A DNA stretch of 64,000 nt from an uncultured Erysipelotrichaceae bacterium. Its GTDB lineage: Bacteria > Bacillota_I > Bacilli_A > RF39 > UBA660. Within the stretch, counting starts at the first letter, position 1, and each line of letters starts with the position of its first letter. Both the position numbers and the translations under genes were made by a program. Of the stretch, positions 5,158 through 42,310 are shown in pieces. The notes under the pieces are model-generated. The model did no database searches. It was not told the origin of the DNA and was given only the letters and a program-made list of their open reading frames with translations. The stretch spans positions 3,209 to 67,208 of the forward strand of contig CACYFN010000003.1 in the NCBI GenBank assembly GCA_902773675.1, in the 5' to 3' direction.

Positions 5158-6049
5158 AATTATCAAAAGAAGTATTAGAGATTCAATGAAAAGTGTATTT
5201 AGAAACTTTTCACTTTCACTTGCTTCAATATCCTGTATAACAATTACCTTAATAGTAGTAGCTATATCAATAGTATTATCTTATAATGTTAATAACTTTA
5301 CTGATATTATCGAAAAAAATGTAACTATGGTTATATTTCTCGATAGCGATGTTACTGATGAACAAATAGAAAATATTCAAAAAGAACTAAAAAAAATAGA
5401 TAATGTAAATACAAAAACAGTTAAATTTATTGACAAAATGTCTATTGCTGATGATATGATGGAATCATCTGAAATATTAAAAAGCGTTATGGAAGATTAT
5501 ACTAGAGAAAATAGCCCATTACAAGACACATTTCAATTAAAAGTAAAAGATATTAATAAAATAGATAAAACAGCTAAAAAAATATCTAATATCGACGGTG
5601 TTGATCTTGTAAAATACGGCGAAGAAATGGTAAAAAAATTAGTTAAAGCATTTGATGTAGTAAGAAAAGGATGCATCTATATAGTAATAGCCTTAATATT
5701 GGTAACAGCATTCTTAATATCCAATACAATTAAAATAACAATTTTCTCAAGAAAAAGAGAAATAGAAATAATGCGTTTAGTAGGAGCTTCTAATATTAAT
5801 ATTAAAATACCTTTTATATTAGAAGGATTATTACTAGGTTTACTAGGTTCAATTGTACCAGTTGTAATAACAATTATAGGATATAATGCCATATATGATC
5901 ATTTCGATGGAGTAATGTTTTCTCAATTTATAAAATTAGTAAAACCAGAACCATTTGTATTCTATGTATCATTAATATTAATTGGTATAGGAATGATAGT
6001 AGGTATGATTGGATCATATCGAGCAGTAAAAAAATACTTAAAAATATAA
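5132..6049 (+). CDS. ftsX: Cell-division permease-like protein FtsX (GTG start)
   Basis: GTG start overlapping the ftsE stop. One N-terminal TM segment, an extracellular domain, then three C-terminal TM segments typical of FtsX. Confidence 0.85.
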   Translation: MSIIVKAFRIIKRSIRDSMKSVFRNFSLSLASISCITITLIVVAISIVLSYNVNNFTDIIEKNVTMVIFLDSDVTDEQIENIQKELKKIDNVNTKTVKFIDKMSIADDMMESSEILKSVMEDYTRENSPLQDTFQLKVKDINKIDKTAKKISNIDGVDLVKYGEEMVKKLVKAFDVVRKGCIYIVIALILVTAFLISNTIKITIFSRKREIEIMRLVGASNINIKIPFILEGLLLGLLGSIVPVVITIIGYNAIYDHFDGVMFSQFIKLVKPEPFVFYVSLILIGIGMIVGMIGSYRAVKKYLKI

Positions 6050-28474: not shown

Positions 28475-29530
28475 ATGATTGAAAGATTAAATAATATAGA
28501 AACACGTTATAATGAAATAACTAAAGAACTAATGGATCCAGAAGTAATTAGTAATATAAAAAAAACATTAGAACTTACCAAAGAACAATCAACACTTAAA
28601 GAAGCATATGAAGCATACCAAGAATATAAACAAGTATTAAGTGATTTAGAATCAGCAAATGAAATGCTAAAAGATAGTGAACTAGCAGAATTTGCTAAAG
28701 AAGAAATAAATACATTAACAGAAAAGAAAAATAAAATGGAAGCAGATTTTGAAATATTATTACTTCCAAAAGACCCTAATGATGGTAAAAACGTAGTATT
28801 TGAAATAAGAGGAGCAGCAGGTGGAGATGAAGCAAATATATTTGCTGGAGACCTTTATCATATGTATACTAAATATGCTGAAAAAAATGGTTGGAAAATA
28901 GAAGTAGTTAATGAAGATCATTCCGATAACGGAGGATTTACTTTAATAGAATTTATTTTAAAAGGTGATAACGTATACTCTAAAATGAAATATGAAAGTG
29001 GTGCCCATAGAGTACAAAGAGTACCAGTAACAGAAACTCAAGGAAGAGTACATACTTCAACTGCAACTGTACTAGTAATGCCTGAAGCAGAAGAATTAGA
29101 CTTTGAACTTGATATGAACGAAGTAAGAGTCGATATAACACGTTCATCAGGGTGTGGTGGTCAAGGAGTAAACACAACCGATTCAGCCGTAAGACTTACT
29201 CATATACCAACTGGAATAGTTGTATATTCTCAAGTAGAACGTAGTCAAATCAAAAATAAAGAATTAGCTATGAAAATATTAAAAACAAGACTATATGATT
29301 TAAAATTACGTGAAAAAGAAGAAGCCGAAGGAAAAGAAAGAAGAAGTAAAATTGGTACCGGAGATAGAAGTGAAAAAATAAGAACATATAACTATCCACA
29401 AAACCGTGTAACAGATCATAGAATAGGATTTACAACAATGCAACTAGATCGAGTAATGGAAGGTGCTATGGATGAAATAATTGAAGCACTTATTACCGAA
29501 GATCAAGCAAGAAAATTAAGAGGAGAGTAA
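28475..29530 (+). CDS. prfA: Peptide chain release factor 1
   Basis: PxT tripeptide region (RVPVTETQGRVHTSTATV) and GGQ (SSGCGGQGVNTTDSAVRLTH). Confidence 0.9.
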   Translation: MIERLNNIETRYNEITKELMDPEVISNIKKTLELTKEQSTLKEAYEAYQEYKQVLSDLESANEMLKDSELAEFAKEEINTLTEKKNKMEADFEILLLPKDPNDGKNVVFEIRGAAGGDEANIFAGDLYHMYTKYAEKNGWKIEVVNEDHSDNGGFTLIEFILKGDNVYSKMKYESGAHRVQRVPVTETQGRVHTSTATVLVMPEAEELDFELDMNEVRVDITRSSGCGGQGVNTTDSAVRLTHIPTGIVVYSQVERSQIKNKELAMKILKTRLYDLKLREKEEAEGKERRSKIGTGDRSEKIRTYNYPQNRVTDHRIGFTTMQLDRVMEGAMDEIIEALITEDQARKLRGE

Positions 29531-29561
29531 TCTCCCTTTTATTATAAGTTGAGGTGATTTA

Positions 29562-30209
29562 ATGAAAGTAAAAATTTGTGCTAATACAAGTATTGAAGAA
29601 GCACAGATGTGCTTAGATGCAAAAGCTGATATAATTGGAATATTAGTTGGACAAGAACATGCCAGTAGTGACTTTGTTGATAAACAAAAAGCAAAAGAAA
29701 TATGTAATTATATAAATAAAAGATGTGATGTATCATTAGTAACTCATCTAACAGATGCTAAAAGAATAATAGAATTAACAGAATATATTGGAAATAATAT
29801 TATTCAATTACATTCAGATATAAAAGAAGAAGAAGTAGAAAAAATAAAAAAAAGATTACCAAATATTAAATTAGTTCGATTAATTCATGTAGCTAGTGAT
29901 GGAACTATTTGTACAGATTATAAAAAAATGAAATATGCAGATTATTATTTATTAGATAGTTTTAATTTAAAAACAAATCAAGTAGGTGGTACAGGTTTAA
30001 CTCACGATTGGAAGAAAAGTAGAGAATTAATTGAATTACTAGATAAACCTACATTTTTAGCTGGTGGACTAAATCCTAATAATGTTTCTCTAGCAATTAA
30101 TACAGCGAGACCTTATGGAGTAGATGTAAATAGTGGATGTAAAAATGATTTTGAAAAAAAAGATAAAGAAAAAGTAAAACAATTTGTTAAAAATGCCAAA
30201 AAAATTTAA
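29562..30209 (+). CDS. trpF: Phosphoribosylanthranilate isomerase-like protein (TrpF family)
   Basis: KVKICANTS start, VGGTGLTHDW, LAGGLNPNNV and PYGVDVNSG match PRAI motifs (GGTG..FDW; LAGGL.P.NV; P.GVDVSSG). Confidence 0.55.
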   Translation: MKVKICANTSIEEAQMCLDAKADIIGILVGQEHASSDFVDKQKAKEICNYINKRCDVSLVTHLTDAKRIIELTEYIGNNIIQLHSDIKEEEVEKIKKRLPNIKLVRLIHVASDGTICTDYKKMKYADYYLLDSFNLKTNQVGGTGLTHDWKKSRELIELLDKPTFLAGGLNPNNVSLAINTARPYGVDVNSGCKNDFEKKDKEKVKQFVKNAKKI

Positions 30210-30226
30210 AATAATAATGTAAAAAG

Positions 30227-30250
30227 AAGTTAAAAAAATATTTTTTTAAC
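30227..30250. terminator. AT-only palindromic hairpin (possible bidirectional terminator)
   Basis: GTTAAAAAAATATTTTTTTAAC, a perfect palindrome. It is weak because the stem is A/T only. Confidence 0.3.
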
Positions 30251-30317
30251 TAAAAATAGTATTAATTATTTAAAAAAACTGTTATAATATTTTCATAATA
30301 AAGAGGAGAAGATAATT

Positions 30318-31499
30318 ATGAAAAAAATAATATTTTTATTTACGGTATTAGCACTTACCATATTTACGGCTTTACCTACAATGGTTAAAGCAGATCCTGG
30401 AGTAGGACGAGTAGCAAATTCAATAACATTAACAGAAAGTAGTACAAATAATGAACAAGTAAATAGTAACACTAATATGGAAGAATTTATTAATTCTAAA
30501 ATAGAAGAATTTTTAGGAGCACTAGCAGAACAAGGAGTTACACTTACTCCAAATAATGCCAATATTGATTTTAGTACACTATTTTCAACAACAGAACCAT
30601 ATAAGTATGCAACAGTTTCAGATGTAAATGACAATTTTGTTATGATTGAAGGAACATTAACTAAAACATATCAAGTTAATTATGTGACTGTTAATGTCAC
30701 AACAACTAACGCAAATAAAACCCAAATAACAAGTGCAGATGTTACTTTAGAAGCTCCAAAAATAGGAGATAAAGTAGAAAAAATAAAAAAAGATGATGGA
30801 TATGGAGAATATGATGCTCAAAGTATAGAACCAACAGTAACTACTACAACTGAAGGAATAAATATAAATGCCTTCTGGGTTAGCGGTTTAGAAGATTTAT
30901 CCGAAGAGCCATTTTATGGAACATTTGAAGAAGATACATATTATTATGCAATGATAGATTTTGAAGCAGAAGAAGGATATGAATTTCCAGCAACTTTTCC
31001 AGATGGAATAAAAGTAAATGGAGCAGCTCCAGATGAAATATTTGCAGTATACGGTGAAACATATACTCACTGCATAGTAAAAATAAAAGCAACAAAAGAT
31101 ACACCAAAATATGAAGTAAAAGAAGGAGCAAATCTAGAATATATAATTAACAAAGACGAAGCTGCAACATTTAGAATAGATGCAGATTATAGCCTATTTG
31201 AAACAGATGGAAAAGTATTTGTAGATGATGTTTTAGTAAATAAAGATAATTATGTATCAAAAACAGGAAGTACAATTATAACATTAGCTAAATCATATAT
31301 GGACACATTAAGTACAGGTACTCATACATTAAAAGTAACATTTAATAATGGTGGAACATCAGAAACAACATTTACAGTAGCTAAACAAGAAGAAAAAAAT
31401 CCACAAACAAGTGATAACATAATAAGCTATATCTCAATCTTAGGACTAAGTATAATTAGTATTACTGGATTATATATAAATAAAAAAAAATTTAACTAG
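30318..31499 (+). CDS. Cell-surface protein with a class-B-sortase-type sorting signal (NPQTS)
   Basis: Signal peptide MKKIIFLFTVLALTIFTALPTMVKA. T/N-rich body. The C-terminus has NPQTS, then a hydrophobic segment (IISYISILGLSIISITGLYI) and a basic tail NKKKFN. Confidence 0.6.
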   Translation: MKKIIFLFTVLALTIFTALPTMVKADPGVGRVANSITLTESSTNNEQVNSNTNMEEFINSKIEEFLGALAEQGVTLTPNNANIDFSTLFSTTEPYKYATVSDVNDNFVMIEGTLTKTYQVNYVTVNVTTTNANKTQITSADVTLEAPKIGDKVEKIKKDDGYGEYDAQSIEPTVTTTTEGININAFWVSGLEDLSEEPFYGTFEEDTYYYAMIDFEAEEGYEFPATFPDGIKVNGAAPDEIFAVYGETYTHCIVKIKATKDTPKYEVKEGANLEYIINKDEAATFRIDADYSLFETDGKVFVDDVLVNKDNYVSKTGSTIITLAKSYMDTLSTGTHTLKVTFNNGGTSETTFTVAKQEEKNPQTSDNIISYISILGLSIISITGLYINKKKFN

Positions 31500-31521
31500 G
31501 AAAATATCCTAGTTTTTTAAG
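31496..31521 (+). terminator. Rho-independent terminator
   Basis: CTAGGA-aaata-TCCTAG hairpin followed by T6. Confidence 0.55.
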
Positions 31522-31611
31522 TGATAAAAAAAATATATTACTAATATTTATTAGTTAAGAAATATTTTAAAATAATTAAATTATGGTATAATATAAATAA
31601 TTTGATATAGG

Positions 31612-32397
31612 ATGTATTTTATGAATTATAATGATTTATTAGAAGCACATCTAAGATTTGGAACAACCAAAGAAGATATTATTAAAGAAAAAGGATTTGA
31701 AAAAATTCAAGAAAATGTCGTTCTTGCACCTTGGTGGAGACATAATATGTTTGAAAATCAAAATTTCAAAATTGAAAAAATAAATGATGTTGTATATAAC
31801 ATTACATATGAAGATTTAACTTTTTCATATATTGAAATTCATAATATAGGTGCATCAGCAGTAATGGACTATGTATTAGCTCTAGGAGTTACAAAATGTA
31901 AAAACATCATATTTTTAGGATCAACGGGTTCACTAGACGAAAAAATTAAAATAGGTGATATAGTTATACCAAAATACTCTATTTGTGGTGATGGAGCATC
32001 TAGATACTTAAATAAAAATCTAGAAGATGAATTATTTAAAAAAGAATATCCAGCAAAAGAAATAACTAAAGAATTAATTAATTTATTGAAAGAACAAAAC
32101 ATTAAATATCATTATGTACCTAATTTTAGTGTTGATAATATTTTTGCTCAATTTTATCATATTGATAAAATATTGAAATTAGGAGCTAAAACTATTGAAA
32201 TGGAAACAGCAAATCTATTCAAATGTGGTGAAGTAATGAATAAAAATGTAACTGCAATCTTTTGCGTTTCGGATAATACAATATTAAAAAAATCTTTATA
32301 TAGTGGAAGAAGTCAAGAAGAACATGAATATAGACATAATGTTAGATATAATATAATTCCAAAAATTGTTATTGATTTAATAAAAAAATTAAAATAG
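31612..32397 (+). CDS. Nucleoside phosphorylase, PNP/UDP family (DeoD/MTA-nucleosidase-like)
   Basis: IGASAVMDYVLALGVTKCKNIIFLGSTGSL and IEMETANLFKCGEVMNKNVTAIFCVSDN. Extended -10 TGgTATAAT upstream. Confidence 0.55.
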   Translation: MYFMNYNDLLEAHLRFGTTKEDIIKEKGFEKIQENVVLAPWWRHNMFENQNFKIEKINDVVYNITYEDLTFSYIEIHNIGASAVMDYVLALGVTKCKNIIFLGSTGSLDEKIKIGDIVIPKYSICGDGASRYLNKNLEDELFKKEYPAKEITKELINLLKEQNIKYHYVPNFSVDNIFAQFYHIDKILKLGAKTIEMETANLFKCGEVMNKNVTAIFCVSDNTILKKSLYSGRSQEEHEYRHNVRYNIIPKIVIDLIKKLK

Positions 32398-32407
32398 AAA
32401 GTAAATT

Positions 32408-32577
32408 AGTGATAAATCTATCCTATTAGTAACCCATGGTGGAGTATCCGCACTAATTAATACATATTATAATAATAATTTATACGAAGGAGCTATATCA
32501 GATAAATTCTTAAAAAATTGTGAATATGCTTTTTATAACACTAAAAAAAAATTACCCAAAGTAAAGAAAAAATATTA
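32408..32577 (+). pseudogene. Possible C-terminal remnant of a histidine-phosphatase (phosphoglycerate-mutase family) gene
   Basis: An open frame with no start codon encodes ...SILLVTHGGVSALINTYY... and resembles the C-terminal LLVTHGGVIRAL region of that family. Confidence 0.3.
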
Positions 32578-32651
32578 GATTTTATAATATAATTCTTTCA
32601 CACTAAGAATATAAAAAATAATATGGTATAATATTTAATAGGAGTGATAAA

Positions 32652-32942
32652 ATGGCTACAACCAAAGAATATAAAGATTATATCTTAGAAAACTTAAATA
32701 TATTAAAAAATATTACCTATAAACCAATGATGGGAGAATACTTACTATATTATAATAAAGTATTATTTGGTGGAATATATGATAATAGATTATTAATAAA
32801 AAAAACAAATAGTAATAAAGTATATAATTTAAAAGAATCAATTCCATATGAAAGTGCCAAACCAATGTATTTAGTAGATACAGATGACTTAGAATTATTA
32901 AAAAATATTATCTTAGATACATATAAAGATCTAAATAAATAG
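32652..32942 (+). CDS. Small protein resembling the TfoX N-terminal domain
   Basis: MMGEYLLYYNKVLFGGIYDNRLLIK resembles TfoX_N (MFG..GLY..G..FA.I.D..LYLK). Extended -10 TGgTATAAT upstream. Confidence 0.4.
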   Translation: MATTKEYKDYILENLNILKNITYKPMMGEYLLYYNKVLFGGIYDNRLLIKKTNSNKVYNLKESIPYESAKPMYLVDTDDLELLKNIILDTYKDLNK

Positions 32943-32954
32943 ATTGGAGAAAAA

Positions 32955-33521
32955 ATGAGTATATTTGAAATAATATTTATTGCTGTTGGACTGGCTATGG
33001 ATGCATTTGCAGTAGCAATATGTAAAGGCCTATCAATGAAAAAAATAGATTATAAAAAAGCAATTATAATAGCTTTGTATTTTGGATTATTTCAAACATT
33101 AATGCCAGTATTAGGATACTTTCTTGGAAGTAGTTTTACTAATGTAGTAGAAAAAATAGATCATTGGATAGCCTTTATTTTACTATCTATAATTGGTATA
33201 AATATGATTAAAGAATCAACCAGTAAAGAGGAAGAAAAAAGAAATGACAAAGTAGATATAAAAACAATGCTCTTACTTGCTATCGCAACCAGTATTGATG
33301 CCTTAGCTGTAGGTATAACCTTTGCCTTCTTTAAAGTAAATATATTATTATCAGTAATAATTATTGGAATAATAACCTTTATAATATCCTTCTTAGGAGT
33401 AATAATAGGAAATAAATTTGGTGATAAATTTCAAAATAAAGCCGAACTATTTGGTGGAATAATATTAATATTAATTGGTTTAAAAATATTATTAGAACAC
33501 TTAAAAATATTTAATTTATAA
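32955..33521 (+). CDS. mntP: Manganese efflux pump MntP (DUF204)
   Basis: Duplicated GLAMDAFAVA / SIDALAVG motifs in a six-TM protein of 188 aa. Confidence 0.8.
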   Translation: MSIFEIIFIAVGLAMDAFAVAICKGLSMKKIDYKKAIIIALYFGLFQTLMPVLGYFLGSSFTNVVEKIDHWIAFILLSIIGINMIKESTSKEEEKRNDKVDIKTMLLLAIATSIDALAVGITFAFFKVNILLSVIIIGIITFIISFLGVIIGNKFGDKFQNKAELFGGIILILIGLKILLEHLKIFNL

Positions 33522-33541
33522 AAAAATGAAGGAGAAAAAAT

Positions 33542-34036
33542 ATGAAAGATAAAAAGAGTTTAATAATATATTTTAGTAGAGCAGATGAAAATTATGCAGT
33601 AGGTTATATAGATAAAGGAAATACCGAAATAGTAGCAGAATATGTAAGAGATTTAACAGGTGCAGATATGTTTAAAGTAGAACCATTAGTTCTATATGCA
33701 AAAGACTATGCTACTTGTATCGAAGAAGCAAAACAAAGAATTGGTAATGCTCCAATCAAAGAAGAAATAAAAGATATATCACAATATGAAGTAATATATA
33801 TAATGAGCCCAATATACTGGGGAACATATGCACCAGAATTAGAAACAGCCATAAAAAACTTGGATTTTACAGGTAAAATAGTTAGAATAATATCTACCCA
33901 TGAAGGATCAGGACTAGCTAATATGGTAAATGATATTAAAAAAATATGTAGGGGTGCCAACGTACTTGATGATGCAATTGCTATTAAAGGTAGTCAAGCT
34001 AAAAATTCCAAATCTATAATAGAAAATTGGATTTAA
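33542..34036 (+). CDS. Flavodoxin-like protein
   Basis: LIIYFSRADENYAVGYIDKGNTEIVAEYV N-terminus typical of the flavodoxin_4 family. Confidence 0.5.
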   Translation: MKDKKSLIIYFSRADENYAVGYIDKGNTEIVAEYVRDLTGADMFKVEPLVLYAKDYATCIEEAKQRIGNAPIKEEIKDISQYEVIYIMSPIYWGTYAPELETAIKNLDFTGKIVRIISTHEGSGLANMVNDIKKICRGANVLDDAIAIKGSQAKNSKSIIENWI

Positions 34037-34075
34037 AATATAAAGATATGATACAATAACTACCGGTGATTAAAT

Positions 34076-34543
34076 ATGAAAAAAATAATATTAATAATAA
34101 TTATACTTATTATTTGTGGATGTAGTTCTAATAATAAAAATATAATTAGTAAAATAGAATTAGATAATAATAATTGTAAAATAATAAGTGAAATAGATAA
34201 CCATAGTGGATTTCATGGTGATGGAGAATATTTTGCTAAAATAAAATGTTCAAATATTAATAAAGAAGAATTATCAAGACATTGGAAAAAACTACCATTA
34301 TCAAACTCAATAAATGAAGCTACAAATATAAATCATTGTGATAGTAAAGGTTGCTATAATATATATGAAAAATATAATATTCCAAATATAAAAAATGGTT
34401 ATTATTATTTCTTAGATAGAAATTCAGAATCAAAAAATAAATATGATGATACATATTTAAATGATAGACATTCTCATAATTATACATTAGCTTTATTAGA
34501 TAAAGATAATGATATAATATATTATTATGAATTAGATACATAG
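34076..34543 (+). CDS. Lipoprotein (hypothetical)
   Basis: MKKIILIIIILIICGCSSNN, with lipobox IICGC. Confidence 0.6.
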   Translation: MKKIILIIIILIICGCSSNNKNIISKIELDNNNCKIISEIDNHSGFHGDGEYFAKIKCSNINKEELSRHWKKLPLSNSINEATNINHCDSKGCYNIYEKYNIPNIKNGYYYFLDRNSESKNKYDDTYLNDRHSHNYTLALLDKDNDIIYYYELDT

Positions 34544-34801
34544 GACTAACTATGAATGGATTTAGTATATTAATGTTTATATTTACCATATCAGTATTTT
34601 TAGTAGGATTATATATGTTTACCGGTCATAAAATAGATATGTTATCTTGGAAAGCACAATATAAAAATCTAAAAAAAGTGATTGGATTAAAATAGGCAAA
34701 TACACAATGATAGTTAGTATATTCATCTTTATACTTGCTATAATTGGTCTAATATTCACTTTTTAAAATATAAATATAAAAGATATTTATATTTTTTATT
34801 A

Positions 34802-34864
34802 TGTAGTAAAATTGTAGTAAATTTGTAGTTTTGTATTGACAAGATATTTTTTTAGTGATAATAT
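34802..34864 (+). promoter_or_regulatory. Three 11-bp direct repeats abutting a consensus sigma-A promoter (TTGACA-17-TGaTAATAT)
   Basis: TGTAGTAAAAT (34802), TGTAGTAAATT (34813) and TGTAGTTTTGT (34824) at 11-bp period. Then TTGACA 34836-34841, a 17-nt spacer, TAATAT 34859-34864. RBS GAGGTGA before the ATG at 34883. Confidence 0.55.
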
Positions 34865-34882
34865 ACATTTGAGGTGATGCAA

Positions 34883-35473
34883 ATGGAAAGTAAAACAAGT
34901 GCTATTAATATTCAAATAGATAGTAATGTTAAAAAAGAAGCTACCATGGTTTTATCAGAATTAGGATTATCAATGAGTTCAGCAATTAACTTATTCCTAA
35001 AACAAGTAGTTAAAAAAAATGGACTTCCTTTTGAAGTAACTAATGTTGTAGATAAAAAGAAAATACTAGATGTAGTATGCGCATTAATTATGAAAGATGG
35101 AAAATGCTTAATAGCTAGAAGAAGCAAAGATGATCATTTAAAAGGAAGATGGGAATTTCCTGGTGGAAGAAGAGTAGGATTAGAAGACGAAAAGAAAACC
35201 CTACAAAGAGCATTTGATGAAGTATTAAAAATTAATGTTGATATTAAAGATTACCTAACACACAGCATATGTGAATATCCAGGACATATTGTCGATTTAA
35301 AACTATATGAATGTGATTATATTAGTGGAGAATTTAATCTAACAATTCATTCAGAATATAAATGGGTAAATATAGAAGAACTACTAGATTATGACCTAGC
35401 AGATGCTGATGTAGTATTATCAAAATTTTTAATAAAAAAGTATATTGAAGAATCAAGAGAAAAAGGAGAATAA
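34883..35473 (+). CDS. Fusion protein: N-terminal RelB/DinJ-type ribbon-helix-helix domain plus C-terminal NUDIX (MutT-like) hydrolase domain
   Basis: N-terminus INIQIDSNVKKEATMVLSELGLSMSSAINLFLKQVVKKNGLPFEV parallels E. coli DinJ (ARIDEDLKNQAADVLAGMGLTISDLVRITLTKVAREKALPFDL). The C-terminus LIARRSKDDHLKGRWEFPGGRRVGLEDEKKTLQRAFDEVL is MutT-like with a slightly degenerate Nudix box. Confidence 0.6.
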   Translation: MESKTSAINIQIDSNVKKEATMVLSELGLSMSSAINLFLKQVVKKNGLPFEVTNVVDKKKILDVVCALIMKDGKCLIARRSKDDHLKGRWEFPGGRRVGLEDEKKTLQRAFDEVLKINVDIKDYLTHSICEYPGHIVDLKLYECDYISGEFNLTIHSEYKWVNIEELLDYDLADADVVLSKFLIKKYIEESREKGE

Positions 35474-35474
35474 T

Positions 35475-35777
35475 ATGGTAGAACTTAAAAAATTACAAAA
35501 AGAAGTATATCAAAATAAAGTAAATCATAACTTTAATGTAACTGATATTAATTTAGAATTTTGTCTTGCATTTGAAGAATTAGGAGAAGCTCATAATGCT
35601 TGGAGTACAAAAAAATCTGATTTAGGAGAAGAACTTGCCGATGTAGCTATCTATCTTTTAGGACTATCTGAAATATTAAATATTGATTTAGAAAAAGAAA
35701 TATTAAATAAAATAAAAAAGAATGCTAAAAGAGTATATAAAGAAGTAAATGGGGTTATTGTTAAGGAAGAGGGATAA
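35475..35777 (+). CDS. MazG-like nucleotide pyrophosphohydrolase (small all-alpha NTP-PPase)
   Basis: EELGEAHNAW...LGEELADVAIYLLGLSEILNIDLEKEILNKIKKNAKRVY matches the MazG/YpjD core (EE.GE...E..ELADV..YL..LA...GIDLE). ATG at 35475 after AAGGAG. Confidence 0.55.
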   Translation: MVELKKLQKEVYQNKVNHNFNVTDINLEFCLAFEELGEAHNAWSTKKSDLGEELADVAIYLLGLSEILNIDLEKEILNKIKKNAKRVYKEVNGVIVKEEG

Positions 35778-35779
35778 TT

Positions 35780-36595
35780 ATGAATATAGAGGAATTAGAA
35801 AATTTATTTGAAAAATATGATATATTTACACTTGATTCATTAAGCATATTATTAAGTTATTTAGATGAATCAGAATTGAAAGAAATAGGCCCAGTATTTA
35901 GAAATGTATATAAGAAAAAGTATAAAAAGATAGAAGAAGAATTTGAAGGAATAAATGAATATGATGATATAAATATATTATTAAACTTTGATATACAAAA
36001 TATTATTGATAATATTATTTTATTAAATAAGAAAGAATTAGATTTTATAAATCACGTTGTTAGTACATCTTTATCAAAAATAGATAAAACCAAAGATGAA
36101 AATTTTAAAATGGTTTTTTATTTAAAAAGTTATCAACACGAAATTGCTATATTTACTGAATATACAAAGTATTCAGTAAATACTATAGATGATAGCTTTA
36201 CTAAGAAAGAACTTGAAAAATTTTTTGAAAAATATGATGTTATTGAATTAGCTTATATGGAACAGATTATTGAAAATGCACGTTATGAATATAATGTATA
36301 TAGATTATATAAAGCATATAATAAAGTATTAAATAGTAAATCACCATATGATATATATACAATCGATGAATATCATGAAAAACAAAAAACAAGTAGAATA
36401 TCTGATATTAAGAAAAAAAATCATTTATTAAATAAGAAAGAATTAACACTTTTAAAAAATTTAATTGATTCATTTTCAAATATTTTAGATGATGAATATT
36501 ATATAAAAGAATTTAGTATATTAGAAAATTCATTAATAGAAGAAATAGATAAAAGAAAAAGACAAAAAACTATTACCAAAAAACCTAAAAAGTAG
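35780..36595 (+). CDS. Hypothetical protein (271 aa), last gene of the DinJ-NUDIX/MazG operon
   Basis: Start 3 nt after the MazG-like stop. No recognisable motif. Confidence 0.5.
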   Translation: MNIEELENLFEKYDIFTLDSLSILLSYLDESELKEIGPVFRNVYKKKYKKIEEEFEGINEYDDINILLNFDIQNIIDNIILLNKKELDFINHVVSTSLSKIDKTKDENFKMVFYLKSYQHEIAIFTEYTKYSVNTIDDSFTKKELEKFFEKYDVIELAYMEQIIENARYEYNVYRLYKAYNKVLNSKSPYDIYTIDEYHEKQKTSRISDIKKKNHLLNKKELTLLKNLIDSFSNILDDEYYIKEFSILENSLIEEIDKRKRQKTITKKPKK

Positions 36596-36616
36596 AAAAT
36601 AGCTTCTACTTTTTAT
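36591..36616 (+). terminator. Rho-independent terminator
   Basis: GTAGAA-aatagc-TTCTAC hairpin followed by TTTTTAT. Confidence 0.5.
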
Positions 36617-36663
36617 ATTACATTTTAAATAATTATGCTATAATTATTATGAGGAGTGATGAT

Positions 36664-37227
36664 ATGAAAAAAATATTTATACTAATTATTGTAGGCTTAT
36701 TTATAATAACAGGTTGTGGAAAAACTAATGAAGCAAGTAATAATGTAGTAGAAAATAAAAACGAAGTAACAAATAAAGAAGAAAAAATAGTAAAACCAAC
36801 AGCAGATGGAGATGAATTAACAGTAGAGTCATTAAACTTCTTTATACCAACAGGATATACTGAAAACTCATACAATGGTATGATGGGAGTATATGATTAT
36901 TATACAGGTAATGTTACTTTAAGTGAACTTAATGTAGGAGTAGTAGTTACATGGAATGGAAACTATAAAGATTCAAATGCCAAAGATTATATTGAAAATA
37001 AATCTAATACAGCAAAATCAATTCATCTAACAAGTGTAACAACAGAAAAAATTAATGGTACTGATTGGTATGTATTTTCAAATGAAAACAATTATTACTA
37101 TGCAGCTGAATATGATGAAAACTTATATGAAGTAACAGTAGAAAAAAGAAATGATCCACAAAACTTATTTGAAACAACCAATGAAATGGTTAAAAAAACA
37201 TTATTCTTTTTAGAAACAGAAGAATAA
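36664..37227 (+). CDS. Lipoprotein (hypothetical)
   Basis: MKKIFILIIVGLFIITGCGK, with lipobox ITGC. ATG at 36664. Confidence 0.6.
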   Translation: MKKIFILIIVGLFIITGCGKTNEASNNVVENKNEVTNKEEKIVKPTADGDELTVESLNFFIPTGYTENSYNGMMGVYDYYTGNVTLSELNVGVVVTWNGNYKDSNAKDYIENKSNTAKSIHLTSVTTEKINGTDWYVFSNENNYYYAAEYDENLYEVTVEKRNDPQNLFETTNEMVKKTLFFLETEE

Positions 37228-37308
37228 TAAGAGGTAAAATATGAATGATAAAATATGTCAAAGTTGCGCAATGCCAATAATAAATGATACTATAATATTG
37301 GTGATTAA

Positions 37309-37713
37309 ATGAAAAAAATATTAACATTTATAAAAAATAAAGATAATAAATTATTACTATTACATAATAATCCTATAGATCCAATTCATGGAGGAGATAT
37401 ATGGTATACAGTAACAGGTGGAGTAGAAGAATTTGATAATACTTTAGAAAATACAGTAATTAGAGAAATAAAAGAAGAAACTAATTTAGATGTAATTAAT
37501 ACCAAATATTTAGAAATTAATTATACTTATACAAATAGAAAAGGTATAGAATGCATTGAATATGTATTTATAAGTTTAGTAGAAGATGGTAATATCATTT
37601 TAAACGAAGAAAGCATTGGATATAAATGGTTAAATATAAACGATTATATAGAAGAAATCTATTGGTATGGAAATAAAGATGAACTAAGAAAAATATTAGA
37701 AAAAAATTTATAA
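37309..37713 (+). CDS. NUDIX hydrolase
   Basis: GGVEEFDNTLENTVIREIKEETNL Nudix-box-like segment (REIKEETNL). Confidence 0.55.
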   Translation: MKKILTFIKNKDNKLLLLHNNPIDPIHGGDIWYTVTGGVEEFDNTLENTVIREIKEETNLDVINTKYLEINYTYTNRKGIECIEYVFISLVEDGNIILNEESIGYKWLNINDYIEEIYWYGNKDELRKILEKNL

Positions 37714-37850
37714 GATAAATTAAAAAAATTTGCAAAATACCATTTGTAATTACCTAAGATATATGATATCATGAATTTGTCAAGGAAACTTGAATATAAT
37801 AAAAAAAGGGAACATTCAGTTTGGTATGCCGAATGTCTACCCAAATTTAT

Positions 37851-37893
37851 TTCGTTGACATTTAATTCAAATGCGAATTAAGTGTCATTTTTT
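37851..37893 (+). terminator. Orphan rho-independent terminator in an ORF-free 400-bp region
   Basis: GACATTTAATTC-aaatgc-GAATTAAGTGTC (12-bp stem, one mismatch) followed by ATTTTTTTAT. It lies 140 nt downstream of the nearest + strand gene. Confidence 0.45.
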
Positions 37894-38110
37894 TATAACA
37901 GCTACCAATAAGGATAGGAGTAATAAAATGATAGCAATGTATCTAAGAATTTTTATAATAAAAACTCTTTTATTCATTATTATCAAACCTCCTCTCTAAA
38001 AGATAAGAGGTAGACACTAAAGAAACTAAATATTCCCATAAATATTATAACAAATATATTGCAATCAATAAAAAATAGATTATTTGTGAAATAAGCAATG
38101 GAGGAAGTAC

Positions 38111-38743
38111 ATGACAGATATAGAATACTTAAAAAAATATTATAAAGGCAACATGATTGGATATAACTTTGATATAAATAAAGACTGTCTAATACCACGT
38201 TTTGAAACCGAACAATTAATAGAAAAGACTATTAATTATATCAATAAACTATTTAATAAAAAAATAGACATAGTAGATCTAGGTACTGGTAGTGGTTGTA
38301 TAGCAATCACCTTAAAAAAAGAACTAGATTGTAATGTAACAGCTGTAGATATATCAAATAAAGCTTTAAAAATAGCCAGGGGTAATGCTAATAAAAATAA
38401 TTGTCTAATAGACTTCTTAGAAGGAGATATGTTAAAACCATTAAATAAAAAATATGACTTAATAATATCTAATCCTCCTTATATAAGTAGAGATGAAAAA
38501 ATAATGGATATAGTTAAAAATAATGAACCCCATATAGCCTTATATGCTGATAAAGAAGGACTTTATTATTATGAAGAAATACTAAAAAAAAACTATCTAA
38601 TAGCATTTGAAATAGGTCAAGAACAAGCAAATAAAATAAAAGAAATGGCTAAACTATACCTATATCATCCATATATAAAAATAGAAAAAGATTTACAAGG
38701 ATTAGATAGATTTGTCTTTATAACTAATGGAGAAGAAATATGA
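38111..38743 (+). CDS. prmC: Release-factor glutamine N5-methyltransferase PrmC/HemK (short form)
   Basis: SAM-binding VDLGTGSGCIAI and the catalytic NPPY motif (LIISNPPYISRDE). Confidence 0.7.
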   Translation: MTDIEYLKKYYKGNMIGYNFDINKDCLIPRFETEQLIEKTINYINKLFNKKIDIVDLGTGSGCIAITLKKELDCNVTAVDISNKALKIARGNANKNNCLIDFLEGDMLKPLNKKYDLIISNPPYISRDEKIMDIVKNNEPHIALYADKEGLYYYEEILKKNYLIAFEIGQEQANKIKEMAKLYLYHPYIKIEKDLQGLDRFVFITNGEEI

Positions 38744-41757: not shown

Positions 41758-41949
41758 ATGAAAATGAATAATAAAGGACAAGCATTAGTTGAATACTTAT
41801 TAATTATCGCAGTAATAAGTGTAGTAATAATAAGTGTAGTAAAATTATTTGGAGGATATTTAAAAGATTCAATGACTAAATCATCTTGCGAATTAACAGG
41901 ACAAAACTATGTAAAAGGAGATTCTCCAGGAGCAGGATATTGTGAATAA
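41758..41949 (+). CDS. Flp/Fap-type prepilin (Tad-pilus-like pilin)
   Basis: MKMNNKG/QALVEYLLIIAVISVVI has G then x4-E-Y, the Flp-family class III leader motif, followed by a hydrophobic helix. Total 63 aa. Confidence 0.5.
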   Translation: MKMNNKGQALVEYLLIIAVISVVIISVVKLFGGYLKDSMTKSSCELTGQNYVKGDSPGAGYCE

Positions 41950-42310
41950 TAAAGGCTTTTCAGCAATCGAGTTACTTGCAATTATCATAATACTAACTAT
42001 TATAGCTTTAATATCAATACCAATTGTATTAAATACAGTTAATAATGAAAAGAAAATGAATAATCGGAAAAGTGTAGATGCATATGGAGAAAATATTGAA
42101 GTTGCTTTTAATCGATATAAAAATGCTCATGATGGAGAATTTACAACTAAATTAGAAGATTTAAAAAAATATCTTACAATAGATAAAGTAAAATGTGATA
42201 AAGTAAATATTGATGAACAAGGTAATGTTACAATAAAAGATTGCTATGTTGATGGAGAAAAAGTCCTAAACGATAAAAGTGAAACCTATGAATATAGTAC
42301 AAAAAAATAG
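41942..42310 (+). CDS. Type IV pilin-like protein (prepilin-type N-terminal cleavage/methylation domain)
   Basis: MNNKG/FSAIELLAIIIILTIIALISIPIV has Gly, Phe at +1 and Glu at +5. Two cysteines near the C-terminus (KCDK...KDCY). Confidence 0.5.
   Translation: MNNKGFSAIELLAIIIILTIIALISIPIVLNTVNNEKKMNNRKSVDAYGENIEVAFNRYKNAHDGEFTTKLEDLKKYLTIDKVKCDKVNIDEQGNVTIKDCYVDGEKVLNDKSETYEYSTKK

Follow-up and report, generated by a model that had tools for sequence, protein, structure and literature searches.

The operon at positions 34802-36616 (plus strand) of a 64,000-nucleotide stretch of contig CACYFN010000003.1, from an uncultured Erysipelotrichaceae bacterium, raises the question of what a protein does that joins an antitoxin-type ribbon-helix-helix (RHH) DNA-binding domain to a MutT-like NUDIX domain. 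We refer to the whole 64,000-nucleotide stretch as the window. The operon constitutes a single transcription unit composed of three repeats, a promoter, three closely packed genes and a terminator, with the RHH-NUDIX fusion as gene 1, a MazG-like gene as gene 2 and a gene for an all-alpha protein as gene 3. To place it in context we use a cross-species set made up of the window and 23 loci from related species, or 24 species in all. Our analysis gives somewhat better than an even chance to the view that the unit is a self-contained operon in which a pseudo-NUDIX, ligand-responsive RHH autorepressor would control pyrimidine (deoxy)nucleoside triphosphate ((d)NTP) house-cleaning. A MazG-like enzyme is always co-encoded in it, and an intact NUDIX paralogue is present in about half of the species.

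Domain architecture and degenerate Nudix box of gene 1

A first-pass annotation of this DNA had described gene 1 as a RelB/DinJ-type RHH domain fused to a MutT-like NUDIX domain, with the RHH fold occupying the N-terminal 50 or so residues, and both parts of this description are upheld. Residues 5-56 match RelB (PF04221, 48.7 bits with a cutoff of 22.4) and RelB_DinJ (TIGR02384, 67.6 bits with a cutoff of 45.65), and residues 4-53 match the DinJ structure 9lew in the PDB (E = 7e-6). The N-terminus is therefore predicted to be a RelB/DinJ RHH domain by three profile libraries and by the PDB DinJ match. The NUDIX matches span residues 63-176, with residues 65-176 assigned to NUDIX_4 (PF14815, 49.9 bits, cutoff 35) and the general NUDIX profile also passed (PF00293, 30.9 bits, cutoff 21.1), while residues 59-181 match NudG (2rrk) and MutT-like structures in the PDB, with 2rrk and 5x1x at E ~1e-15. 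The nearest named relatives are NudG and MutT. The best NCBIfam match is the pyrimidine (d)NTP diphosphatase NudG (PRK10546), which scores 83 bits against an equivalog cutoff of 156.

The resulting layout is an RHH domain at approximately residues 4-46, a low-confidence linker at 47-57 and a MutT/NudG-type NUDIX fold at approximately 59-193. An AlphaFold2 (AF2) model contains helices at 14-26 and 31-46 and has predicted local distance difference test (pLDDT) values above 90 for residues 60-190; its N-terminal strand is unformed, which is to be expected when an RHH domain is modelled as a monomer. The RelB profile is matched only as far as position 54 of its 85, and the NUDIX fold begins at residue 59, so that gene 1 lacks the C-terminal toxin-binding tail.

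The Nudix box of gene 1 reads GGRRVGLE-DEKKTLQ-RAFDEVLKI as compared with the consensus GX5EX7REUXEEXGU, and HMMER alignments to NudG/MutT-like structures place its R-A-F-D-E-V-L-K-I opposite R-E-L-R-E-E-L-G-I of NudG. All 24 species share the box pattern R[A/S]F.[E/D][V/L/I/E/D/A]. At the site corresponding to Glu53 of MutT, which serves as general base, every one of them has Ala or Ser, and the box Gly is replaced by K or another residue throughout. The counterpart of Glu57 can be V, L, I, A, D or E, a free variation that implies no constraint at this site. Two of the three catalytic glutamates are gone from the Nudix box in every homologue.

Counterparts of this domain with an intact box exist. 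For example, 11 of the 23 related operons contain a separate NUDIX gene of 130-139 amino acids (aa) that is ~30% identical and has an intact GGKx5Ex7REIKEE box, and the nearest free-standing NUDIX relatives, which are 38-52% identical (P0130, P0134, P0135 and P0138), retain REIxEE. Outside the box the dead and active forms have R80, H156, D171 and D176 in common as invariant residues, with S157, E158, Y159 and W161 conserved at 90% or more. Gene 1 is also under very strong purifying selection, with a ratio of nonsynonymous to synonymous divergence (dN/dS) of 0.05-0.14 against 22 species at dS values of 0.8-1.5, and of 0.03 against the sister genome L033, which gives an overall span of 0.03-0.14 at dS values of 0.7-1.5; its NUDIX half is as constrained as its RHH half. 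Such low ratios at these dS values indicate that conservation of gene 1 comes from selection and not from recent transfer. The fused NUDIX domain is thus a predicted pseudoenzyme descended from active NudG/MutT-like hydrolases, and a degenerate box combined with strong constraint is the signature expected of ligand binding that has been retained without catalysis. With dead and live paralogues present within the same operon, the evolutionary record is unusually clear.

Downstream of the operon, at a distance of two genes, the window also carries a separate gene for a 134-aa NUDIX protein (37309-37713, plus strand) whose REIKEE motif is intact. It is 90% identical in the sister genome, where it lies just upstream of prmC, and belongs to a different subfamily than the operon-borne intact NUDIX paralogues of other species.

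Operator, promoter and partner genes

Upstream of gene 1 the first-pass annotation had reported three 11-bp repeats that abut a near-perfect TTGACA-17-TG-TAATAT promoter. Both elements are present (Table 1) and both are conserved across species. The repeats TGTAGTAAAAT, TGTAGTAAATT and TGTAGTTTTGT are direct, with a period of exactly 11 bp and a core of (A/T)TGTAG(TA), of which the third repeat keeps TGTAG(T) alone. Together they form a putative operator (34802..34834) at approximately -69 to -37 that abuts the -35 hexamer. A triple TGTAG at exact 11-bp spacing has a chance expectation of ~9e-5 per window and was seen in none of 300 Markov-simulated windows versus once in the real window; the single repeat 11-mer shows no enrichment in the window. 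Across species, TGTAG-N6-TGTAG-N6-TGTAG occurs exactly once per locus in 22 of the 23 related loci, on the coding strand and abutting TTGAC, and the repeats are as strongly conserved as the -35 hexamer. The triple was not found elsewhere in 350 kb searched on both strands. An alignment of 17 species is invariant at the three TGTAG(TA) cores and at T-TTGAC, with sequence upstream of the repeats unconserved, and in a comparison of the window with locus L007 nucleotide similarity starts exactly at 34802, the first repeat. The triple repeat, as judged from these comparisons, is a phylogenetic footprint and a putative conserved cis-element.

Compared with the hexad [A/T]TGT[A/C]A of the E. coli RelB operator (relO), the core (A/T)TGTAG agrees at five of six positions; within that hexad the four bases at the centre are the critical ones, and the final A matters least (PMC2812701). 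The RHH strand residues KTSAINIQ do not vary between species, which would match the invariant operator site.

Promoter-like matches occur at chance level in this window of 24% GC (38 found versus 35.5 expected), and the gene 1 promoter is credible because it is conserved across species, not from the match alone. Specifically, TTGAC and the TG ahead of the -10 hexamer are conserved between species, and a GAGG motif is found at the same position as the ribosome-binding site in homologous loci. A GTG at 34874 was considered as the start of gene 1 and rejected, as homologues begin at MENKTSAINIQ. The stop and start codons of genes 1 and 2 are separated by 1 nt and those of genes 2 and 3 by 2 nt, and internal Shine-Dalgarno sequences at these gaps fit translational coupling of genes 1-3, as had been proposed. 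The hairpin that closes the unit folds with z = -7.28, with 0 of 200 shuffles folding as well, and the gene downstream of it has a promoter-like site of its own.

Gene 2 had been annotated as a MazG-type pyrophosphatase, an assignment that stands by a narrow margin. It scores 28.0 bits against MazG-like PF12643 (cutoff 27), falls below the cutoff of PF03819 (18.2 versus 22) and matches a PHROG pyrophosphatase family at 1.2e-10. Its best solved relatives are dCTP pyrophosphatase 1 (DCTPP1/RS21-C6) and integron MazG, both weak (E >= 0.0016). The acidic motifs E-L-G-E-A and G-E-E-L-A-D are conserved in 22 species and align to EELSDV of DCTPP1, making gene 2 a predicted MazG-like all-alpha NTP pyrophosphohydrolase with its acidic motifs intact. 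Comparison of gene neighbourhoods supports a stable pairing: the fusion and the MazG-like gene are adjacent, or parted by an intact NUDIX gene alone, in 22 of the 23 related loci. A pyrimidine theme is found in both genes, with NudG as the best NCBIfam match of gene 1 and DCTPP1 as the best PDB match of gene 2.

Gene 3, whose product had been noted to contain no recognisable domain, remains without one. It encodes a tandem pair (residues 1-138 and 140-266) of an all-alpha module of ~130 aa, with an acidic body and a Lys-rich C-terminal tail. The module signature is ..EELE.FF.KY...EL... followed by ..KN..L..KEL.FL..L and a basic tail, and members with one, two or three copies are present in 21 of the 23 related loci. 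No consistent match was obtained in Pfam, NCBIfam, PDB sequences, PHROGs or PADLOC; a family profile search recovered just 13 proteins from 5.8 billion; and the AF2 model (pLDDT 86.8) has no fold match. The family thus appears to be a confidently modelled one without detectable fold relatives. Divergence from the sister genome L033 is concentrated here, with amino acid identity of 75-96% for neighbouring genes, 95% for the fusion, 97% for the MazG-like protein and 50% for gene 3. The dS of gene 3 in this comparison is 0.59, like that of the neighbours, with a dN of 0.35 and a dN/dS of 0.59 overall and ~1.2 over codons 80-120, as compared with 0.03 for gene 1 and 0.06 for gene 2. By these measures gene 3 is an apparently always-intact, rapidly diversifying partner.

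In two loci (L026 4561-4977 and L029 4511-4981) an extra gene-3 family member, made up of a single module, separates the operator/promoter from the fusion. The same operator and promoter precede this extra gene, and its position indicates that the gene-3 family can occupy either end of the operon.

Table 1. Features of the three-gene transcription unit, in window coordinates
Feature	Sequence	Position	Strand	Basis or remarks
Putative operator, repeat 1	TGTAGTAAAAT	34802-34812	+	pattern search
Putative operator, repeat 2	TGTAGTAAATT	34813-34823	+	pattern search
Putative operator, repeat 3	TGTAGTTTTGT	34824-34834	+	pattern search
Sigma-70-type promoter		34836..34864	+	TTGACA 34836-34841, 17-nt spacer, extended -10 TG 34856-34857, TAATAT 34859-34864
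Ribosome-binding site	GAGGTGA	34871..34877	+	read from sequence; 5 nt before gene 1 ATG
Gene 1, 196 aa, RHH-NUDIX fusion		34883..35473	+	ATG after GAGGTGA
Gene 2, 100 aa, MazG-like		35475..35777	+	PF12643 match
Gene 3, 271 aa, two all-alpha modules		35780..36595	+	no family match
Intrinsic terminator hairpin	AAAAAGUAGAAA...UUCUACUUUUU	36586..36615	+	-11.3 kcal/mol; overlaps gene 3 stop codon

A second copy of TGTAGTAAAAT, at 41835, was considered as an operator and rejected as a chance copy inside a small coding sequence (41759-41950, plus strand; MKMNNKGQALVEYLL...) that has a type IV prepilin-like G/QxxxE signal.

Distribution and genomic context of the cassette

The fusion has ~1,090 relatives at 90% clustering, of which the best 120 all contain both domains and are at least 83% identical. 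Among 1.84 billion representatives at 50% identity it forms a single full-length cluster (P0125) within the best 150 of 8,626 matches, and the others of these 150 cover the NUDIX part or the RHH part alone. N-terminal extensions on close NUDIX relatives among the same best 150 include HIT, HNH, GNAT, HAD and deacetylase domains, with no RHH. Carriers of the fusion are uncultured gut and rumen Bacilli, with records that include metagenome-assembled genomes of Bacilli, Erysipelotrichaceae and Mollicutes and Clostridium sp. CAG:433, from ruminant, rabbit and human hosts. Full-text literature searches found no paper on an RHH-Nudix regulator. The RHH-NUDIX architecture, which had been suggested to be non-standard, accordingly appears to be neither common nor characterised and, as far as these databases extend, confined to uncultured gut/rumen Bacilli. 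Databases name the fusion "type II toxin-antitoxin system RelB/DinJ family antitoxin", a pipeline label that is probably wrong. Mislabelling of this kind would inflate counts of toxin-antitoxin (TA) systems in uncultured lineages.

A split ancestor, in which an active NUDIX gene would follow a separate gene for the RHH domain, was not found in loci L030-L032. A phage origin of the cassette was also considered and rejected for want of support from phage records, none of which covers more than one domain of the fusion, or from viral contigs, none of which encodes it. In the window the cassette has housekeeping flanks (prfA, MntP and flavodoxin on one side, the 134-aa NUDIX gene and prmC on the other). 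Elsewhere its flanks are other housekeeping genes (SecG, RNase R and SmpB in L004; NifU plus an S1-domain gene in L006), and flanks are common only within sub-clades. In the sister genome L033 the cassette is at the same chromosomal position, between prfA and prmC. The fusion is 78-87% identical across the 23 species with dS near saturation, so its inheritance is mostly old and not due to recent transfer.

The cassettes of L004 (5906-7673), L006 (1762-3530) and L008 (407-2189) are 96-99% identical and have unrelated flanks, with the common segment extending from ~9 bp before the first TGTAG repeat to just past gene 3. The occurrence of near-identical segments in unrelated flanks indicates that the unit behaves as a discrete cassette. 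A 336-bp rve (insertion sequence (IS) integrase) fragment is found upstream of the cassette in L004 (5550-5884) and downstream of it in L006 (3559-3894).

Several additional observations concern the surroundings of the cassette and the relatives of its NUDIX domain. The genes prfA and prmC are usually adjacent. In the window (region 28475-38743) a variable interval of ~8.5 kb lies between them and holds the cassette; a comparison with L033 (1-7854) shows different accessory genes, namely RibD_C, a Zn-ribbon protein and GrpB in L033 versus PRAI, a 393-aa protein of unknown function and PNP in the window. A conserved gene for a 30-aa hydrophobic peptide, with a strong ribosome-binding site and downstream hairpins, is located at 37885-37977 (minus strand; MNKRVFIIKILRYIAIILLLLSLLVAVIKK), 1.3 kb downstream of the cassette. 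Its counterpart in L007 (6933-7025, plus strand; MKTKTFIIKVLKLIAIILLLSTLLVLAIKK) lies ~170 nt downstream of the cassette, with DNA identity of ~76% over 119 nt. The 119-nt element has no tRNA or Rfam match, and a strict motif search did not find the gene near the cassette in other loci. The peptide has the appearance of a small membrane peptide of the type I toxin kind. The closest intact relatives of the fused NUDIX domain (P0132, P0141, P0151 and P0183) include proteins of ~420-430 aa that combine NUDIX with a weak SAD/SRA match and HNH, as well as HNH_2-NUDIX fusions. One NUDIX-SRA-like-HNH gene (L031 5007-6299) has a large helicase-like gene on one side and a SWIM-like gene on the other. 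Such a protein may join a nucleotide sanitiser to a modification-dependent restriction enzyme. TagI was considered as a Nudix-HNH enzyme and dropped, as TagI is SRA-HNH.

Proposed mechanism, rival explanations and known systems

In the mechanism that we favour, RHH dimers would occupy the three repeats, which are one helical turn apart, in a cooperative manner and from one side of the double helix. They would thereby block the UP-element/-35 region and keep the strong promoter repressed. The dead NUDIX pocket would take up a nucleotide of the class on which its active relatives and the co-encoded MazG-like and NUDIX enzymes act. This would alter DNA binding, and relief of repression upon ligand binding would lead to expression of the hydrolases as their substrate builds up. 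As ligand, the most plausible candidate would be a pyrimidine (d)NTP, or an otherwise non-canonical one, that is unusual or present in excess, such as NudG and DCTPP1 handle. Gene 3 would be an obligatory, fast-evolving helical partner that may serve the regulator or the enzyme as a modulator or scaffold. The first-pass annotation had raised a possible ligand-gated RHH-NUDIX transcription factor by analogy with NrtR, an idea that drew support from every computational test run, including the RHH assignment and the operator footprint. Its suggestion of a nucleotide-sanitising module survives in part, with the MazG-like enzyme in its favour and the NUDIX domain, given its degenerate box, probably no sanitising enzyme. 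If the proposal is true, it offers a testable handle on nucleotide-pool quality control in reduced-genome gut/rumen Bacilli, with operator, ligand class and enzymes defined.

Several observations weigh against this autorepressor. The ligand is a guess from relatives at 40-50% identity, gene 2 is barely above the PF12643 cutoff, the window operon itself has no intact NUDIX paralogue, and a simple house-cleaning model leaves hypervariable gene 3 unaccounted for. Loss of the glutamates makes hydrolysis by gene 1 unlikely, which is less than proof of its absence. Nearly identical cassettes in unrelated flanks, together with the IS fragment, are more typical of accessory or conflict modules. Additionally, the repeats lie upstream of the -35 hexamer and not over the -10 hexamer or the transcription start, leaving room for an activating or architectural role.

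This last point leads to an alternative in which the regulator has no small-molecule ligand and its dead NUDIX domain serves only as an oligomerisation or protein-docking module, for instance for the MazG-like enzyme or gene 3, or else the protein is an activator that acts upstream of -35. The position of the repeats is typical of activators, non-catalytic Nudix domains are reported to mediate protein interactions (PMC5389931), and gene 3 co-occurs constantly, as would be expected of a protein partner. However, a near-consensus promoter with an extended -10 should need no activation, and the non-box residues that are common with active hydrolases are hard to explain without nucleotide binding, so that we regard this alternative as distinctly unlikely. 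We are more doubtful still of a PutA- or BirA-like protein that is enzyme and repressor at once, in which the NUDIX domain would be active via a non-canonical site with catalysis or substrate occupancy coupled to DNA binding. RHH-enzyme fusions such as PutA do exist, the fold is intact, substrate-side residues are conserved, and E101 persists, as does the first Glu/Asp of the "EE" pair, with two species reading DE or ED there. This has to be set against a Glu53-equivalent that is never Glu, a Glu57-equivalent that is unconstrained, and intact paralogues in the same operon that would make a second enzyme redundant.

The first-pass annotation had also entertained a degenerate or novel TA-like or defence unit, and this reading is less favoured; we consider it unlikely rather than remote. 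In such a TA-like or anti-phage conflict module the RHH-NUDIX protein would be the antitoxin or sensor and the MazG-like enzyme or gene 3 the effector, triggered by a phage-type or alarmone nucleotide, with a MazG-like effector acting by nucleotide depletion. The RelB/DinJ type of the RHH domain and the TA-like appearance of promoter and operator favour this, as do the dN/dS of gene 3 (0.59, and ~1.2 in one segment, versus 0.03-0.45 for neighbours), the 96-99% identical cassettes beside the rve fragment, and the presence of NUDIX-SRA-like-HNH fusions next to a helicase among the closest active NUDIX relatives. On the other hand, the RelB match stops short of a toxin-binding tail, genes 2 and 3 match no RelE/YafQ/ParE-like or defence family in Pfam, NCBIfam, PADLOC or PHROGs, the fusion is far more conserved across the 23 species than typical antitoxins, phage records and viral contigs lack it, and the neighbours are housekeeping genes. 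The fusion does match the PADLOC model PDC-S07 (PDLC04899) at 121 bits, but we rejected this match as defence evidence because free-standing NUDIX proteins score 123-147 bits (P0130, P0134 and the operon paralogue of L009, at 5585-5998), and a sequence taken to be that of E. coli MutT scores 131 bits. The model is thus generic, a literature search found no functional validation of it, and its use could inflate defence counts. The unit is not a canonical toxin-antitoxin system.

A further possibility, which we rate as quite improbable, is that the cassette performs inducible surveillance of non-canonical nucleotides, the dead NUDIX domain sensing a modified pyrimidine (d)NTP and derepressing the hydrolases, with gene 3 as an arms-race interface. 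It is similarly improbable that the ligand would be, for example, 5-methyl- or 5-hydroxymethyl-dCTP or dUTP derived from foreign-DNA salvage or phage replication, and there is as little likelihood that gene 3 would be a phage-protein trap or a specificity-determining partner of the regulator. If such surveillance is true, the cassette would represent a new class of nucleotide-triggered, non-abortive defence/sanitation switch and only the second known Nudix-derived transcription factor family.

Returning to the proposed autorepressor, its closest mechanistic precedent is NrtR, in which a catalytically degenerate Nudix domain is the effector sensor of a repressor for genes of NAD metabolism, often including its own operon (PMC2330246, PMC6800001). 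NrtR is the sole Nudix-derived transcription factor named in a review of the Nudix clan (PMC5389931). The likeness, a dead Nudix domain as sensor in a DNA-binding protein, is a mechanistic analogy only. In NrtR an N-terminal ADP-ribose-pyrophosphatase-type Nudix domain precedes a winged helix at the C-terminus, the effector is ADP-ribose and the binding sites are palindromes, whereas gene 1 has the reversed domain order, an RHH domain, a NudG/MutT-type Nudix domain, direct repeats and NTP-pyrophosphatase targets. The two would thus be independent inventions and not homologous architectures.

Gene 1 resembles RelB/DinJ antitoxins in having an RHH domain above the TIGR02384 cutoff, an operator core like the relO hexad, a position as first gene of its operon and a strong, presumably autorepressed promoter. 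It differs from them in that it has no disordered C-terminal toxin-neutralising tail, no RelE/YafQ toxin gene accompanies it in the window or in the 23 related loci, its repeats are direct and not inverted, its conservation is very high and its copy number is low. An N-terminal RHH domain joined to a C-terminal metabolite-sensing or pathway-enzyme domain is also the plan of NikR, MetJ and PutA. However, the C-terminal domain is ACT-like in NikR, a dehydrogenase in PutA and NUDIX in gene 1, with any sequence relation limited to the RHH domain. NudG and MutT have the fold and family-specific residues in common with gene 1, which differs in lacking equivalents of Glu53 and Glu57 and the box Gly and in being fused to a DNA-binding domain. 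Gene 2 is similar to DCTPP1/RS21-C6 and integron MazG in its EXXE...EEXXD helices and its length of ~100 aa, a weak similarity (E ~1e-3). The E. coli mazEFG operon likewise places a MazG-type enzyme downstream of a TA-type DNA-binding gene, but the operon of genes 1-3 has no MazF-like toxin. On present comparisons gene 1 would therefore fit membership of neither the NrtR regulators, the RelB/DinJ antitoxins nor the NUDIX hydrolases. If the proposed mechanism is true, the RHH-pseudoNUDIX protein would be a second and independent case, after NrtR, in which the fold of a house-cleaning enzyme has been turned into a sensor.

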